Positions 6,223-9,238 of a DNA stretch of 12,071 nucleotides are shown in pieces. Source of the DNA: a virus. The position numbers were made by a program, and so were the translations under genes. The stretch is from UHGV virus genome UHGV-0371921. One strand, 5' to 3'. The notes beneath the pieces were generated by a model. The model was not told the DNA's origin. It did no database searches and saw only the letters and a list, made by a program, of their open reading frames with translations. Position 1 is the first letter of the stretch. The number at the start of each line of letters is the position of its first letter.

Positions 6223-6438
6223 ATGAAGATAGAAATATTTGGTGGAGCTGACAACACTCGTGGCCTGATTTACCTTGAATTCGATGAATCATACCTGCCA
6301 GAGGTGTTAAATATAGACTCTGTTGCTGAGGCTTTGGGAGTAAACCCTAAAGAACTCCACTCTTGTGCTGAGATCGATGGTTGGGAAGAGACCATGAACA
6401 TTGATTTCAGTGAAGTAGAGGATGAACCGCTGGACTGA
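6223..6438 (+). CDS. hypothetical acidic protein (71 aa)
   Basis: ATG 6223 with GAGGAG 5 nt upstream; last gene of the rightward block. Confidence 0.6.
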   Translation: MKIEIFGGADNTRGLIYLEFDESYLPEVLNIDSVAEALGVNPKELHSCAEIDGWEETMNIDFSEVEDEPLD

Positions 6439-6532
6439 CGCACAATTAGCTGCCCGGCCAAAGTGCTGGAAGCGCACCTATAACACATCTTTCAACTAAA
6501 TTTCCCACCACCACAATCACTTACCTTCCACA

Positions 6533-6565
6533 CATGACTGTTTGCTTGTTTAGTGAGCAGTCATG
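6533..6565 (+). other. inverted repeat CATGACTG-N17-CAGTCATG immediately upstream of a promoter
   Basis: 8 bp arms at 6533-6540 and 6558-6565. Confidence 0.4.
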
Positions 6566-6567
6566 CC

Positions 6568-6595
6568 TTGACATTCTTGCCTATCCTGATAAAAT
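6568..6595 (+). promoter_or_regulatory. sigma70-like promoter TTGACA-N16-TAAAAT reading into the ORF-free zone
   Basis: TTGACA 6568-6573, 16 nt spacer, TAAAAT 6590-6595; no ORF with a ribosome binding site follows. Confidence 0.45.
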
Positions 6596-7119
6596 TAAGT
6601 TCTTCTCTTTTCTTTTACCGAGTAATTCGGGTTTTCTGTTCTCTTCGGTTTGAAGGGGTATGGAGATACACCTGAGTGAACAGGGTGAACAACCGAACCA
6701 TTGGCTATGGCATTAGCATGGCGAAGCGGACGGGTGACGAAAGAGGGGCCGGAGGACACCAGTCACTGCCATATGATATATGGGTGATAACCTGAAGAGT
6801 CTGAATAAGTGTTTAAGTACCAGTCAGAGGAAAAGGTGAATGGTAGCCGAAGGGGAGGGGGGTTTCTTGTATCTTTAATTTGTATATTATGTATACACTT
6901 GTAAACCAATCTCATCTGAATCTGTTTACCACACAAAGCGAATAGAGACAAATATTACCTATTAAACTTGAATTATTTATAGAAAATACCGCAACACCAC
7001 TTAAGTCTTTGATTTTACACACAAATCCTACAGATATTCAGCCTCCCTATTTAACATACCTGTAACATATTCCATACTCTACCTGCCTGATCAATTTACC
7101 CAACTACATCCCCATATTT

Positions 7120-7350
7120 TCCCTGTCTGTACTACCCCTGCCCCGCCGGGAGTCCCGTCATATCTGGCTTTCCAGCAAATATCACACCCACAAATATCAT
7201 TGCCTGAAGAGGGTTTCATCCCATAATACATACCTTGCCTGAAGATCGCTTCATACACCACGTAAATTTTTTAATTGACCTGCAATTTCTCCTCAGATAT
7301 CCCCCTGTCCCGCCGGAGAGGTTGTCTTTTCCCACACAGACCTGAAGAGT
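7120..7350. repeat. degenerate ~175 bp duplication carrying CCCTG(C/T)CCCGCCGG and CCTGAAGAG motifs
   Basis: CCCTGCCCCGCCGGGAG at 7134-7150 versus CCCTGTCCCGCCGGAG at 7302-7317; CCTGAAGAG at 7203-7211 and 7341-7349 (also CCTGAAGAT at 7238-7246). Confidence 0.5.
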
Positions 7351-7544
7351 CAGTCAGAAATATCTGAATGGGCCCAGTTCTGCCCTGTCATGAGCGGTAG
7401 CGACTGGAGTGCTGCCAGGCGGACGGAATGGGAATACTTCTCATTCTTATAATAATTCTCAAATATCGAGGCAGTGAGGCAAATTAATAGGTGAGGCCGT
7501 TCACACAGTGGCACAACATTTGCAATCTATTTTGTGAGGGTGAA

Positions 7545-7579
7545 TGAGAATACCTATCATTGTGAGAATCTTTATCATT
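7545..7579. repeat. imperfect tandem repeat TGAGAAT(ACC/CTT)TATCATT x2
   Basis: Copies at 7545-7561 and 7563-7579, 14 of 17 positions identical. Confidence 0.5.
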
Positions 7580-7933
7580 ACGGGCAATTTAACATAATAC
7601 CCATTATGCGCACCACTGGCGATACATACAGGGATTGATAACATAGGTTACTGTTTACGCACATAACAATTATATTTCTTATTATTTGTGGGGGGATATA
7701 GTTAGCAGCCAATAGATTAGATATTGACCTGCAGACTTCTGACCGTCCAGACGTCTAAACGCCCACACAACAAGGATTATACATACAACACTGAATGTAA
7801 ACAGGGCCGCAAAAATGCTACCATACAAGCTTGTAAATTTTTCATGCAGCACTTGACAAAGAGGAGAAAAACTTGTCTGACATAATATGACACTTTAAGC
7901 ACATTAAACACACTGAACATAATTGACATGCAT

Positions 7934-8038
7934 GACTGTTTACGCTGTCACTATTCACGCTATTACTATTCGCTCGCTTACTGTTCATGACCTTTACTGT
8001 TTACATTCCCAATAGTTTACATAGCTTACTGTTAACGT
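7934..8038. repeat. iteron-like cluster of ACTGTTTAC / TTACTGTT direct repeats
   Basis: Exact ACTGTTTAC at 7935-7943 and 7996-8004 (also 7650-7658 and 8472-8480 outside the cluster); variants TTACTGTTCA 7978-7987, TAGTTTACA 8013-8021, TTACTGTTAAC 8026-8036; all in one orientation. Confidence 0.6.
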
Positions 8039-8064
8039 ATAGATTATTTACTCAAAAATGATAA

Positions 8065-8084
8065 GCCATGCCATTCGTTTGCAT
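8065..8084. repeat. 20 bp direct repeat GCCATGCCATTCGTTTGCAT, left copy
   Basis: Identical 20-mer recurs at 8296-8315. Confidence 0.8.
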
Positions 8085-8130
8085 GACAATAATTATACAT
8101 GACAATAATCGCACTGATTATAATTAGCAT

Positions 8131-8282
8131 GACATAATATAAAAGCAGGGCAACTATTAGCAGATCTATAGTTGCCTTGCTTGTTATGTCATGATTAACT
8201 GAATACAAGGCAACTATGATCTGATTAATAGATTGCAGACAAACTATCACGGGGGTGATGGTTACTGCTTTTATATTATGTC
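8131..8282. repeat. 16 bp inverted repeat pair GACATAATATAAAAGC (8131-8146) / GCTTTTATATTATGTC (8267-8282) enclosing the palindrome
   Basis: Exact reverse complements. Confidence 0.75.
8149..8176. repeat. 28 bp palindrome GGCAACTAT-N10-ATAGTTGCC (candidate protein-binding site)
   Basis: 9 bp arms are exact reverse complements; further GGCAACTAT copies at 8209-8217 (direct) and 8314-8322 (inverted); 12-mer CAAGGCAACTAT is shared by the arm at 8168-8179 and the copy at 8206-8217. Confidence 0.75.
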
Positions 8283-8295
8283 GCGACTCCGTCGC

Positions 8296-8315
8296 GCCAT
8301 GCCATTCGTTTGCAT
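8296..8315. repeat. 20 bp direct repeat GCCATGCCATTCGTTTGCAT, right copy
   Basis: Identical to 8065-8084; preceded by small hairpin CGCGAC-TCC-GTCGCG (8282-8296). Confidence 0.8.
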
Positions 8316-8929
8316 AGTTGCCTTATTGTTACAGATAGAATAATTGTATTGTTAATTATTTCTTATCTTTCTATTAGTCATCTAATGATTCCAGTTAGTA
8401 TAGTAACGTACAGTAAACATTAGACGACTAAAGATTTCTCTGCTTATGGTAACCTAACGTGACAATTCCAGACTGTTTACGAAAAATGTTGACACTTGGG
8501 CCGATTTATGTTATGCAGTTTACACGAATAATTATTTTATGCAGGTATTGACTATTCCGTTATTCTATGGTTGGAATAAATGCTTAGCAGGCTATAGAAT
8601 GGCGAGCGTACGTAAATTCTGAGATCTGGCGGCTATAGTTATACTCGATTTTTCACGTAGAAAACGCTTTTGTAGTTATGTAAGTGTATGACTTATAAGA
8701 ATTTTTAGTTGTTGACAAGCTATTGAAGATATGCATCAGGTTAAATTTTGTGCAAATGCTGCATTACGTGCAATTTTGGAAGGAAAAACGTGTAAAAATG
8801 GCCCTGCTACCACACAATGAAAAATTATGCAATAGTTATTTTATATGTATGTTTGTACAGTGGGGTTAATTGCTGGCTTGTTGATTATTCCATTTGCCAG
8901 GCGGGGCCATTTGTGGTAGGAAAAGAGGA

Positions 8930-8958
8930 GACAAAAGAAAGGGGCTTTAAGCCCCTGA
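8930..8958 (-). terminator. intrinsic terminator of the leftward gene block (minus RNA: AGGGGCU-UAA-AGCCCCU then UUUCUUUUGUC)
   Basis: 7 bp stem plus U tract on the minus strand, just downstream of the last minus-strand stop codons (8976 / 8987). Confidence 0.7.
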
Positions 8959-8975
8959 CCGTGCACCTTGTTGTA

Positions 8976-9110
8976 TTATTTGTTGCTCATCCAGTTTTCC
9001 CAAGCTGCCTGATAATCTGCCTCACTACGGCGGATCTCTTCTTGCTCTTCAAGGCGGATCTCTTCTTCCAGGTACCCCAAGATGTCAGCCTTTTTGGTCT
9101 GGCGTAACAT
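8976..9110 (-). CDS. alternative -1 frame ORF (44 aa, MLRQTKKADILGYLEEEIRLEEQEEIRRSEADYQAAWENWMSNK), possibly the true C-terminal part of the 9238 gene
   Basis: Protein-like acidic sequence with EEEIR repeat; no strong SD of its own; fully overlapped by the track ORF in another frame. Confidence 0.3.
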   Translation of the reverse strand: MLRQTKKADILGYLEEEIRLEEQEEIRRSEADYQAAWENWMSNK

Positions 9111-9238
9111 CCAATCATCTTTTTACGAGTGAAGATCTTATAAGCTTTCTCGCAAACCTCTTTTTTGCTACCTTTCTGGACTTCAAGAATTCTGTAGGCC
9201 ATGTACTGAACTAATTTAAGCTGATCCAGACGTTTCAT
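8987..9238 (-). CDS. hypothetical protein; 3' half likely out of frame (see frameshift finding)
   Basis: ATG 9238 with AAAGAGGA 7 nt upstream; N-terminal 40 aa protein-like, but residues after about 40 are Lys/Arg/Ser/Trp-rich, typical of out-of-frame translation. Confidence 0.4.
   Translation of the reverse strand: MKRLDQLKLVQYMAYRILEVQKGSKKEVCEKAYKIFTRKKMIGCYARPKRLTSWGTWKKRSALKSKKRSAVVRQIIRQLGKTG

Follow-up and report, generated by a model that had tools for sequence, protein, structure and literature searches.

A gene-free zone between converging gene blocks of an rV5-like phage is very probably its genome-end region, with a direct terminal repeat that carries a dif-like Xer site

The window, a stretch of 12,071 nucleotides from virus genome UHGV-0371921, belongs to an rV5-like phage (Vequintavirus). 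Two blocks of genes, each transcribed towards the genome ends, converge there on a zone (6439-8975) in which the ORF survey found no credible gene on either strand. The last plus-strand gene, with AGGAG at -5, ends at 6438, and the first minus-strand gene ends at 8976. The former is intact in all 14 relatives aligned, with 4, 3, and 16 variable columns by codon position. The longest ORF of the gap encodes 68 aa, against 86.7 ± 19.4 aa in 300 dinucleotide shuffles, and the number of gap ORFs of at least 50 aa (8) is close to that of such shuffles (6.5 ± 2.3). This resemblance to shuffled sequence suggests that the gap is non-coding. None of eight gap ORFs matched PHROGs and none reached the Pfam threshold, while all 12 flanking genes tested had PHROGs matches. 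The scan of the window for tRNA and tmRNA was also negative. The first-pass annotation had described an ORF-free zone at the meeting point of two gene blocks, and both points are confirmed. The three ORFs that it named inside the zone (6763-6951 and 8044-8250 on the minus strand, 8817-9107 on the plus strand) do exist; they are intact in 2, 1, and 0 of the 14 relatives, respectively, show no third-position bias in the alignment of these relatives, and are interrupted by a G-run that varies in length, by several indels, and, in FV3, by a deletion of 231 bp. Coding density, put at near 90% on both sides, is somewhat lower with a conservative gene set (0.83 to the left and 0.75 to the right).

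The gap is 7.6 times as large as the next-largest intergenic space of the window (335 bp). The suggestion that phages rarely tolerate so large a gap holds for its size and is weakened for its rarity, since equivalent convergent gaps of 1.5-2.6 kb are found in six genera of the subfamily Vequintavirinae, and the rV5 paper (Kropinski et al. 2013, PMC3606486) draws the gap of that phage as a “non-coding” box. The equivalent rV5 locus (104014-106617) carries no annotation, as is the case in most of the 122 related GenBank records. The members of the Vequintavirinae, a large subfamily, are strictly lytic myoviruses and have been isolated widely. Could the gap be degenerate coding sequence, or a normal gene that sequencing errors have disrupted? 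The adjacent 264-bp gene on the right does carry a 1-nt frameshift in this window, and several submitters annotate small ORFs in the gap. Nevertheless, this deletion in an A-run is all that makes the right-hand boundary look ragged, the gap is common to 122 independent genomes, and the ORFs annotated in it are not conserved and vary among records. With no protein-family matches, an ORF spectrum equal to that of shuffles, and a conservation that follows blocks and motifs rather than codon position, this explanation is hardly tenable.

By homology to relatives, the zone consists of a right-end flank of 979 bp (6439-7417), one collapsed copy of a 460-bp direct terminal repeat (7418-7877), and a left-end flank of 1098 bp (7878-8975), both flanks being non-coding. 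At the nucleotide level, much of the flank DNA is more conserved than the neighbouring genes. The right-end flank opens, after the last plus-strand gene, with a C-rich, G-poor spacer (6439-6567, plus strand; C/G 2.05, with 78-nt windows of C>G). It is variable, with indels in relatives and low identity to L019, and is a possible Rho-loading tract for the plus-strand block; no intrinsic terminator was found in it. A near-consensus sigma-70 promoter follows (6568-6595, plus strand; TTGACA-16-TAAAAT with an upstream TG, 11/12 match) and points towards the terminal repeat. In L019 (about 83% identical), neither the hexamers nor the TG have changed, whereas the spacer carries 6 substitutions and an insertion of 2 nt. 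This strong predicted promoter is conserved, which suggests that part of the zone is probably transcribed. The promoter leads into an ultra-conserved G/purine-rich block (6602-6870, plus strand; C/G 0.53), which is 98-100% identical in 14 relatives and 96-100% in L019, compared with 78-94% for the adjacent gene. A pyrimidine tract and then a small hairpin with a T-run mark its start (6618-6640, plus strand), and it ends in G4AG6 (approximately 6852-6862), where the length of the G-run varies between phages. We considered the block as coding sequence and rejected this, given the loss of the ATG in ev147 and the frameshifting indels of the G-run. It is confined to Vequintavirus. Beyond it lie an AT-rich stretch (6871-7030, 28% GC) and an extremely C-rich, G-poor part of the flank (7031-7417, plus strand; C/G 2.4 over 6900-7350). 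The motif counts against shuffles pointed there to CCTGAAGAG boxes (7203, 7238, and 7341) and AAATATC boxes (7177, 7192, and 7358), all on the plus strand. A copy-number-variable repeat of GGAGTGCTGCC type (7385-7417, plus strand) adjoins the left repeat boundary, and the alignment is rich in indels just to the left of 7418.

The left-end flank also begins with an array, so that copy-number-variable arrays adjoin both repeat boundaries. This one (7878-8060, plus strand; TRF period 15) is made of 15-16-bp units with a ACTGTTTAC core and is hypervariable: identity is 0.52-0.66 with many indels, copy number differs between phages, and LL12 lacks it. ACTGTTTAC with at most one mismatch was found 15 times (3.15 ± 1.87 expected), 9 of them in the gap. 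The next segment (8065-8315) lies between identical 20-bp direct repeats, GCCATGCCATTCGTTTGCAT (8065-8084 and 8296-8315), and FV3 lacks one of these copies together with everything between them. It holds a long imperfect hairpin or cruciform-forming element of 152 nt (8131-8282) with a perfect outer stem of 18 bp. Four GGCAACTAT boxes are associated with it, three inside (8149, 8168, and 8209) and one just outside (8314). The hairpin is far more stable than shuffled sequence (z = -12.4 as DNA, -11.6 and -9.6 as RNA; none of 200 shuffles was as stable) and is invariant within the genus; in rV5 and LL12, a 33-nt insertion falls near its tip, between paired positions of the fold in the window. 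KPP-1, of another genus, has an analogue unrelated in sequence (z = -11.3) at an equivalent position, 309 bp inward of the repeat boundary (254 bp here). The remaining AT-rich part of the flank (8331-8939, plus strand) is well conserved in the conservation profile. Invariant TTGACA/TTGACT boxes (8489, 8548, and 8712, plus strand) are followed by variable spacers and then by invariant downstream segments, and are possibly weak inward-facing promoters; the promoter at 6568 is the only one of the zone with a good -10 at the proper spacing. The zone closes with an intrinsic terminator of the minus-strand block (8940-8956, minus strand), with a 7-bp stem (5 GC pairs) and a T-run. It is the terminator reported earlier at 8930-8958; as a sequence feature it is genuine and confined to the minus strand, and terminators are annotated at the equivalent place in Murica, Gotham, EdH4, and PVP-SE1.

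Both flanks bear on the idea of an ncRNA locus, in which an RNA of about 270 nt from the 6568 promoter, a hairpin RNA of about 150 nt (8131-8282), or both would act in trans. This idea would fit a promoter that looks functional and leads into a block of higher conservation than the neighbouring genes, and it would also fit a hairpin that is very stable on either strand. However, the fold z-scores against shuffles gave no signal in the promoter-led block (-0.6 for the transcript, +1.1 for its long form, and -0.2 in a further test), and no clear terminator follows 6602-6870. The hairpin has no good promoter ahead of it, and, being invariant within the genus, offers no compensatory changes to assess. 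Searches against Rfam gave no match near the gathering score in the whole window, nor in the gap alone at E up to 5. We found no published transcriptome study of these phages. A trans-acting RNA is thus improbable, and this candidate function, one of several proposed from the sequence, found no backing in the folds and in Rfam.

A replication origin, as the function of the zone or as part of it, is somewhat less improbable, though still unlikely. Transcription-primed origins are known from T7, T4, and ColE1. In one version, transcription from the 6568 promoter would yield a G-rich transcript, and its persistent RNA-DNA hybrid would prime replication at the 28%-GC stretch; in another, the ACTGTTTAC array and the hairpin would be initiator-binding or unwinding elements. 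The order of promoter, G-rich block ending in G4AG6, and 160 AT-rich bp fits the former, and the enrichment of iteron-like words and the hairpin (z of about -12) fit the latter. The cumulative GC skew also has its maximum at about 6750-7050, and a change in skew at the equivalent position of rV5 is noted in its genome paper (PMC3606486). This change, however, coincides with the switch in transcription direction and is therefore not independent evidence, a view shared by the rV5 authors (PMC3606486). Moreover, the array is variable in copy number and missing in LL12, FV3 has lost the hairpin segment, the promoter block does not extend beyond Vequintavirus, and the right-end flank of KPP-1 is only about 330 bp long. 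An origin is in any case compatible with a genome terminus and not an alternative to it.

The central 460 bp argue for such a terminus. The left boundary of the repeat falls between 7417 and 7418 (...GTGCTGCCA and then GGCGGACGG) and the right boundary between 7877 and 7878 (...CTTGACAAAGAGGAGAAAAACTTGTC and then TGACATAAT). The record of Gotham has a repeat_region at 1-459 and 136567-137025, with the same sequence at both ends. In EdH4, the first and last 459 bp are identical and the start and end bases are those of Gotham; Korf 2019 reports terminal redundancies of 458 bp (EdH4 and HdK5). Several groups have deposited records that open or close exactly at the equivalent of 7418 or 7877, at least 9 in all. 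The 122 records contain 142 matching places, so that the zone is found in two places in at most 20 of them. Breaks inside the zone in about 20 records would account for this (large insertions could also split a match), where random opening of a 137-kb genome predicts about 2 breaks. Repeats of the same kind occur in other genera: the Hena1 record has 519-bp direct terminal repeats (1-519 and 148324-148842, 100% identical), and KPP-1 has a 514-bp repeat with twofold coverage, analysed by PhageTerm and called T7-type (PMC9862379). The boundary motifs are recognisable in both phages. The comparison with relatives proposed earlier as a check for a terminal-repeat boundary has thus located one at 7418 and another at 7877. 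Since the window holds one collapsed copy of the repeat, the termini of its own phage are deduced by homology (about 96% identity, identical boundaries).

This has to be weighed against published statements that these phages are circularly permuted or packaged by the headful. The rV5 genome is called circularly permuted (PMC3606486), PhageTerm “circular permutated” is listed for bov11CS3 (Svab 2021, PMC8407724), and a 2026 paper infers headful packaging (PMC13211470). If packaging proceeded by headful from circularly permuted concatemers, the repeat would be an artefact of assembly or annotation and the gap a pac region or a transcription-termination zone. However, genomes from independent groups begin or end at exactly the same two bases, and version 2 of the bov11CS3 record likewise starts at the left boundary. 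A fixed short repeat appears in Korf 2019, in the annotations of Gotham and Hena1, and in the coverage data of KPP-1. The boundary motifs are kept across genera while the DNA immediately outside is hypervariable, and k-mer overlap artefacts would not yield 459-519 bp with identical ends. Some of the calls may be explained by the library type, since termini are invisible in transposase-based libraries (PMC5557969). Headful packaging is therefore very unlikely. From these comparisons of sequences and records, the zone is very probably a terminus region with a direct terminal repeat. Only slightly less secure is the reading of the zone as the genome-end (concatemer-junction) region of an rV5-like phage, with both ends brought together in the manner of a concatemer or a circular assembly. 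Genome terminus and packaging are thus the candidate functions of the first-pass annotation that find support. That annotation had committed to no single function, and both the repeat itself and the site described below had escaped it.

Several elements lie within the repeat. An AAATATC box (7461-7467, plus strand) is placed exactly 43 bp inside the left boundary. KPP-1 has it at the same distance, and in both phages, which belong to two genera, a tandem pair lies upstream; 4 of the 5 plus-strand copies in the window and all 3 in the KPP-1 locus are no more than 500 bp from the boundary. A tandem pair of 17-bp repeats, TGAGAAT-N3-TATCATT (7545-7579, plus strand), corresponds to part of a 34-bp “repeat_region” annotated in nomo and magaca, and the KPP-1 repeat carries related AATGAGAAT and TATCATT repeats. 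In the window, this pair ends 7 bp before the XerD arm of a 28-bp dif-like Xer site on the minus strand, GGTGCGCATAA-TGGGTA-TTATGTTAAAT (7587-7614), which along the plus strand runs from the XerD arm (7587-7597) through the central region (7598-7603) to the XerC arm (7604-7614). Neither of the two 11-bp arms differs from that of the experimentally confirmed E. coli dif, the site at which the host resolves chromosome dimers (0 mismatches in 22 positions; chance expectation 0.00). Every Vequintavirus locus has the site, and Gotham and EdH4 have it in both terminal copies; a 36-mer over it is identical in 113 of the 122 Vequintavirus records and has one mismatch in the other 9. About 75 records from further genera of the Vequintavirinae also have it: in Mydovirus, Henunavirus, Avunavirus, Seunavirus, and Certrevirus, the XerD arm matches at 11 of 11 positions and the XerC arm has 0-2 mismatches. 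In all six genera, it lies within the convergent gene-free gap, and within the repeat wherever this has been mapped. It is the only detectable similarity of the gap to Hena1, Av-05, and 262-kb contigs. A site conserved beyond its surroundings, across otherwise unalignable gaps, suggests a real XerCD substrate under selection, which we consider probable from these alignments.

The centre of the site is TGGGTA here and TAGGTA, CGTGTA, CGTGTT, or GGTGTA in other genera, never the TGTATA of the host, and the orientation of the site flips; these features fit recombination of phage with phage. They bear on the possibility that the site serves integration at the host dif, by an IMEX-like carrier or in a pseudolysogenic state. 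Filamentous phages use exactly such a strategy (PMC3025954), a filamentous prophage sits at dif in UTI89, and the outer 2 bp on each side of the centre match the host dif in Vequintavirus (TG..TA). Nevertheless, none of the 5,426 complete E. coli genomes has an integrated copy (the best gap matches span 40 nt), the centre differs from that of the host at 2 of 6 positions and changes by genus while the arms are fixed, and the phages are described as strictly lytic. Integration is thus very unlikely. We found no published report of a dif-like site in the terminal repeat of rV5-like phages. The non-coding gap and the terminal redundancy have been published before, and the dif-like site within the repeat is the new point; in the text searched, neither Kropinski et al. 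2013 nor Korf et al. 2019 connects the gap with the termini, describes its separate elements, or refers to a Xer site.

A genome-end region of this kind suggests the following scheme. Replication would produce concatemers with one repeat copy per junction; terminase would recognise the junction and cut at the two fixed boundaries, and the second copy would arise by extension synthesis at staggered nicks, as described for T3/T7. The mechanism for this class of short exact direct repeats is stated in PMC5557969. Candidate recognition and cleavage signals are the motifs conserved at the boundaries, the AAATATC boxes, and the variable arrays that adjoin the repeat. Packaging would leave two Xer sites in direct repeat on each genome, and once the DNA has been injected, XerC/XerD of the host could recombine them into a circular, exonuclease-resistant monomer, with a linear by-product of repeat length; the same site could alternatively resolve circular multimers. 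Recombination by XerCD between the terminal copies, circularising the genome, appears to be the likeliest use of the site, although we put circularisation as its main role at below even chances. More tentative still is the proposal for the Vequintavirinae as a whole that host XerCD circularises the injected genome or resolves or unlinks circles, with the flanking elements as candidates for activation, regulation, or packaging. If true, this would be a host-recombinase counterpart of the Cre/lox system of P1 and a use of Xer outside integration, and the promoter-led G-rich block and the cruciform element of about 150 nt, 250-310 bp inside the left end, would be candidates for activation or regulation, or for packaging. 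At the chromosomal dif, XerD needs activation by FtsK. No phage substitute for it was found among the domains of 12 neighbouring proteins, which include no recombination-related domain, and a neighbouring gene labelled “DNA translocase FtsK” has no match to the FtsK-gamma domain.

Among known systems, the locus resembles the concatemer junction of T7 and T3. In T7, short-repeat arrays (SRL/SRR) reportedly flank the repeat directly, and a promoter, phiOR, is said to fire towards the junction from the right-end side. The arrays at 7385-7417 and 7878-8060 parallel SRL/SRR, and the 6568 promoter parallels phiOR. Shared features are a short exact direct repeat at each end of the virion DNA, bounded at fixed positions and produced site-specifically (PMC5557969), and the long non-coding stretch on both sides of it. 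On the other hand, the repeat is longer here (460 bp against 160-231 bp), the carrier is a myovirus with a genome of 137 kb, and the stretch of non-coding DNA is larger (2.5 kb). Both gene blocks point outward to the ends here, while the early genes of T7 run inward from the left end; the promoter is of host sigma-70 type, T7 is not known to have a Xer site, and there is no sequence similarity.

The site itself has the 28-bp layout of E. coli dif, cer, and psi, with an 11-bp XerC arm, a 6-bp centre, and an 11-bp XerD arm. In cer and psi, the XerD arm is perfect and the XerC arm drifts, as in the other phage genera. It differs from dif in its centre (TGGGTA against TGTATA) and in its location in a phage terminal repeat, and hence twice per virion genome, and KOPS are not enriched (2 occurrences, facing opposite ways, where 0.79 ± 0.93 were expected). 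A dif-like sequence through which a virus would exploit host XerCD recalls IMEX, filamentous phages such as CTXphi and the CUS-1-type prophage that integrate at dif. The sites of IMEX usually combine a degenerate XerD arm with a longer central region (PMC3025954). Here, in contrast, the XerD arm is perfect, the centre is of 6 bp, and the carrier is a large lytic myovirus; the lack of integrated copies and the centre unlike that of the host also set it apart from IMEX. The closest functional analogy for two direct Xer sites in terminal repeats may be lox/Cre of P1. There, a site in the terminal redundancy circularises the injected linear genome without homologous recombination and also resolves plasmid dimers. 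P1 uses its own recombinase and packages by the headful, so that lox lies in the redundancy of only some virions, whereas here the recombinase would be that of the host and every virion would carry two sites.

The 2.5-kb gap between the converging gene blocks (6439-8975) matched 122 phage records at ~86 to 97% identity, nearly all of them Vequintavirus (rV5-like coliphages), and 98 to 100 of these covered at least 80% of the query. A contig in IMG/VR is 99.9% identical and presumably the origin of the window. The equivalent stretch of rV5 (104014-106617, from ORF163 on the plus strand to ORF164 on the minus strand) carries no annotation. It corresponds to the grey box without ORFs, "labeled non-coding," in the published rV5 map, whose authors described a change in GC skew at this zone and did not find the bidirectional terminator expected there (PMC3606486). 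For all gap ORFs of 25 aa or longer, we asked in 14 relatives whether the frame was intact and whether variation was biased by codon position, and we scanned eight of these ORFs against PHROGs and Pfam. None was both intact and third-position biased, so the ORF-free zone proposed by the first-pass annotation is real, and the 14 relatives showed no conserved gap ORF that sequencing errors could have broken in the window. The three ORFs that had been named inside it (6763-6951 and 8044-8250 on the minus strand, 8817-9107 on the plus strand) are not credible genes: they were intact in two, one, and none of the 14 relatives, and their sequences are interrupted by a G-run that varies in length, by several indels, by the loss of 231 bp in FV3, and by the insertion of 568 bp in rV5 and Murica. 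The longest gap ORF had 68 aa, versus 87 ± 19 in shuffled sequences. None of the eight scanned ORFs matched PHROGs or reached the Pfam threshold, and protein-coding readings of the gap were ruled out by these tests, all negative. All 12 flanking genes tested matched PHROGs. The gene bordering the gap (6223-6438) is a true gene, with AGGAG at -5, an intact frame in 14/14 relatives, and 4, 3, and 16 variable columns at the three codon positions. Coding density in a conservative gene set was 0.83 and 0.75 on the two sides, which is high but slightly lower than the claimed "near 90%," and the next-largest intergenic space in the window is 335 bp. The hairpin at 8940-8956 is, as annotated, a terminator, acting on the minus strand. 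No known RNA was identified by Rfam (in the window or in the gap alone) or by ARAGORN.

A sensitive search revealed two query positions within the gap at which several records begin or end, each of these records having two matching places. Gotham annotates a repeat_region at 1-459 and 136567-137025, and the EdH4 record begins and ends at those bases too. Aligned to the window, this direct terminal repeat spans 7418-7877: GTGCTGCCA precedes the left boundary and GGCGGACGG starts at 7418, while AAACTTGTC ends at 7877 and TGACATAAT follows the right boundary. Records from other groups (YN3, bov11CS3, bov25_3, EcoIv14a_Aya, ECP2303, ECP2309, and Pr121LW) open or close exactly at these boundaries. 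The 142 matching places in 122 records imply that up to 20 records hold the zone twice. This would be consistent with ~20 records broken inside the zone, where ~2 breaks are expected if a 137-kb genome is opened randomly; large insertions could split matches too. Since the boundaries lie inside the gap in relatives, the window shows two genome ends joined, with a predicted layout of a 979-bp right-end flank (6439-7417), one collapsed copy of the 460-bp repeat, and a 1098-bp left-end flank (7878-8975). Among the functions suggested for the gap, that of a genome terminus is thus supported. In related genera, a 514-bp repeat of KPP-1 (Mydovirus) is backed by twofold coverage and by PhageTerm (PMC9862379), and the Hena1 record (Henunavirus) annotates 519-bp direct terminal repeats. 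Some 18 to 19 unannotated records (MG0656xx) titled "Campylobacter phage," with Campylobacter jejuni as host, are 88 to 96% identical to this E. coli phage group across the gap and look mislabeled or contaminated.

The gap and the repeat were each already in the literature but were not connected to each other. Once recognized as the genome-end region, the gap is ordinary, as is the identification of the termini itself. Its value is practical. Among the ~120 Vequintavirus genomes on deposit, most have been opened at arbitrary positions; in some records, spurious genes are annotated over the repeat; and the literature is divided, several papers calling these phages circularly permuted or proposing headful packaging (the rV5 paper, PMC3606486; Svab et al., PMC8407724; a 2026 paper, PMC13211470). 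Termini are invisible in transposase libraries (PMC5557969). Correct ends are useful for synthetic rebooting, engineering, and comparative genomics in a group popular in therapy and biocontrol.

The zone is not a neutral spacer, since an alignment of 16 sequences, including a metagenomic relative that is ~83% identical, showed block-wise conservation. The right-end flank contains a sigma-70 promoter at 6568-6595 (11/12 match plus TG). Both hexamers are kept in the metagenomic relative, where the spacer has six substitutions and a 2-nt insertion, a functional signature at the level of sequence for this predicted promoter. The 270 nt downstream are 96 to 100% identical, versus 78 to 94% in the adjacent gene. 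This block is G-rich (C/G of 0.53), was found in Vequintavirus only, was negative in coding tests, and ends in a G-run of variable length at ~6852-6862 (bounds approximate), which is G4AG6 in the window and ranges from G5AG6 to G7AG6 among the relatives. The G-run lies ~250 nt downstream of the strong promoter, is followed by a T-rich stretch, and holds one of the two KOPS-like octamers of the window. We take it to resemble the mitochondrial CSBII element, where an R-loop is stabilized by a hybrid G-quadruplex. A large structured RNA starting at the 6568 promoter was rejected, as fold z-scores (-0.6, -0.2, and +1.1) gave no signal. After the G-rich block come 160 bp at 28% GC and then a very C-rich, G-poor tract (C/G of 2.4) that reaches the repeat. 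From their composition, the C-rich tracts at 6439-6563 and 6982-7315 are likely Rho-loading regions, and Rho loading would likely replace the "missing" terminator for rightward transcription. TTGACA boxes are enriched in the gap, all on the plus strand, but only the promoter at 6568 has a convincing -10 element, and the overall count of promoter-like sequences in the gap equals that of shuffles. We found no Vequintavirus transcriptome study in the open-access literature.

The repeat boundaries themselves are invariant, while the DNA directly outside both of them is hypervariable. Adjoining the left boundary on its outer side is a GGAGTGCTGCC-type repeat whose copy number varies, and adjoining the right one is an array of 15- to 16-bp units with an ACTGTTTAC core. 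The window and KPP-1 each have an AAATATC box at precisely +43 relative to the left boundary, preceded in both cases by a tandem pair; the two repeats are otherwise alike only in the boundary motifs and one central island. These boundary motifs, fixed-offset boxes, and variable arrays offer ready cis elements for studies of terminase recognition. The word ATGACA(T)AATA recurs at the right boundary (7878-7888, TGACATAATAT), in tandem at 8082 and 8098 (8082-8109), and in both outer-stem arms of a 152-nt hairpin (8129-8140 and 8271-8282), and may be a further protein-binding motif of the left-end flank.

Folded as DNA, this hairpin (8131-8282) reaches a z-score of -12.4, a stability matched by 0/200 shuffles. 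At the corresponding position, KPP-1 has a branched hairpin without sequence similarity (z = -11.3); it lies 309 bp inward of the boundary, versus 254 bp in the window. The gap of PVP-SE1 (Seunavirus) also shows a very stable branched hairpin (L155 3201-3400), at ~-75 kcal/mol in 200 nt (a value given without a shuffle control) and ~570 bp from the dif-like site described below, which would extend this conservation of structure without sequence. The genus is too uniform to yield a covariation signal for the 152-nt hairpin: the few changes mostly break mid-arm pairs. FV3 is missing exactly the segment between the 20-bp direct repeats GCCATGCCATTCGTTTGCAT (8080-8296). The lost stretch holds the hairpin along with three of the four GGCAACTAT boxes. 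Either the conserved element is dispensable, or the repeats were collapsed in the FV3 assembly. A MITE-like or mobile element at 8065-8315 was rejected, since the segment is single-copy and its inverted repeats do not adjoin the 20-bp direct repeats, and deletion between the latter explains the FV3 difference better.

At the right edge of the gap, a 264-bp gene (8976-9238, minus strand) is frameshifted in the window at a T-run at ~9112-9116 (A5 versus A6 in relatives) and split into ORFs 8987-9238 and 8976-9110. The split, shared with rV5_ev146, means that either the homopolymer was misread in sequencing or the gene is a pseudogene. In several records this gene is called "DNA translocase FtsK," a label unsupported by Pfam. 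At the same edge, rV5, Murica, and ev147 carry ~565 extra bp (insertion point at 8948). The additional 420-bp gene found there (L002 6603-7022; rV5 ORF164) is also present in LL12, 366V, and EPFV3 and absent from the window, nomo, slur16, and JeffSchatz. The Murica record notes that it "contains Rel homology domain," and we found no Pfam match for it.

The central island of the repeat contained a 40-nt match in ~36 E. coli chromosomes. It is dif itself and the only match of the gap in the E. coli genome search, which revealed no other host-derived sequence. The match in UTI89 is E. coli dif, GGTGCGCATAATGTATATTATGTTAAAT, present once in the K-12 terminus locus and confirmed experimentally (Kono et al., PMC3025954). 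In UTI89, dif (L023 4008-4035; 1652987-1653014) adjoins filamentous-phage-like genes (zonular occludens toxin family protein, secretin, and DUF2523) that appear to be a Xer-integrated prophage. Such a prophage beside dif accounts for the slightly longer match to the phage site in the ~36 genomes. The window site, GGTGCGCATAA-TGGGTA-TTATGTTAAAT (7587-7614, minus strand), has 0/22 arm mismatches (0.00 expected by chance) and by its sequence is assigned to the dif family. It is strongly conserved as a Xer-type site: it was found in every fetched Vequintavirus locus and in both terminal copies of Gotham and EdH4, with one arm mismatch in nomo and a TAGGTA center in rV5. A 36-nt query was identical in 113 records and had one mismatch in nine more. 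It also retrieved ~75 records from other genera of Vequintavirinae, where the matched DNA nearly always lacks annotation.

In these genera, the site lies inside the mapped repeat of KPP-1, inside each annotated terminal repeat of Hena1, in the middle of a 1.9-kb convergent gene-free gap of Av-05 (Avunavirus), in a 2,268-bp convergent gene-free gap of PVP-SE1, and, in Certrevirus, in a 1.5-kb gap of phiTE and in one further contig. The Seunavirus and Certrevirus gaps were found through the site, since their termini could not be located via the conserved neighboring gene because gene order differs there; a search with the last gene before the gap yielded only three loci among divergent relatives. 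The XerD arm is 11/11 everywhere, the XerC arm has zero to two mismatches, and the 6-bp center varies by genus and is never the TGTATA of the host. Hena1 and Av-05 carry the site in the opposite orientation to that of the window, and it is the only detectable similarity between the window gap and the Hena1, Av-05, and 262-kb contigs. In phiTE (L156 1796-2296), an HNH endonuclease gene that looks like a homing-type insertion lies within the otherwise gene-free terminal zone, ~300 bp from the site. Two large viral contigs carry a perfect-arm site and a degenerate one ~100 bp downstream in the same orientation: a 262-kb contig (L035 1286-1313 and 1393-1420) and a 155-kb contig (L027 276-303 and 372-399), where both sites fall in the first 400 bp and which had no megablast match in the phage collection. 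Neither the site sequence nor a link of dif-like sites with phage terminal repeats was found in the open-access literature.

We propose that terminase cuts concatemers at both boundaries, with the repeat duplicated by extension synthesis as in the T3/T7 model, and that the boundary motifs, AAATATC boxes, and flanking arrays would be the recognition elements. Host XerCD would then act on the injected DNA and recombine the directly repeated Xer sites at its two ends, producing a circular monomer along with a linear by-product of 460 bp. Resolving or unlinking circular intermediates of replication may be a further role of the site. Judged by sequence, conserved arms with a free center and free orientation would suit recombination between identical phage copies and would not fit integration at the host dif; no integrated copy of the phage was found in 5,426 E. 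coli genomes. At chromosomal dif, FtsK is needed to activate XerD. No substitute emerged from the neighboring proteins or from the KOPS analysis: the 87-aa neighbor labeled "DNA translocase FtsK" lacks an FtsK-gamma domain and any other relevant one, and KOPS guidance was rejected, as the octamers show no enrichment and the two that occur are oppositely oriented. None of the 12 neighboring genes had a recombination-related function (PHROGs; no Pfam match at threshold), their PHROG families comprising 11 of unknown function and one transcriptional regulator. By analogy with CTXphi, where a XerC-first pathway is resolved by replication, such a pathway is possible for the phage site.

The surprising part is the dif-like site, with perfect host arms, placed in the terminal repeat and conserved across six genera. 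Finding one in the terminal repeats of an entire subfamily of lytic myoviruses is unexpected and can be tested directly. The hypothesis is that a linear genome with only 460 bp of redundancy would thereby reach its replicating form and escape RecBCD. If so, the phages should depend on host xerC and xerD, and perhaps on ftsK, and this dependency could affect host range and resistance.

The genome ends resemble the T7 concatemer junction, which has flanking short-repeat arrays and a promoter directed towards the junction; the window likewise combines a repeat, such arrays, and a promoter aimed at the junction. To our knowledge, exploitation of Xer is known in small integrating elements and not in large lytic phages. 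The phage site differs from that of IMEX and, by the tests available, does not belong to one. The closest functional analogy for Xer sites in terminal repeats is phage P1, which carries lox, the target of Cre, in its terminal redundancy.
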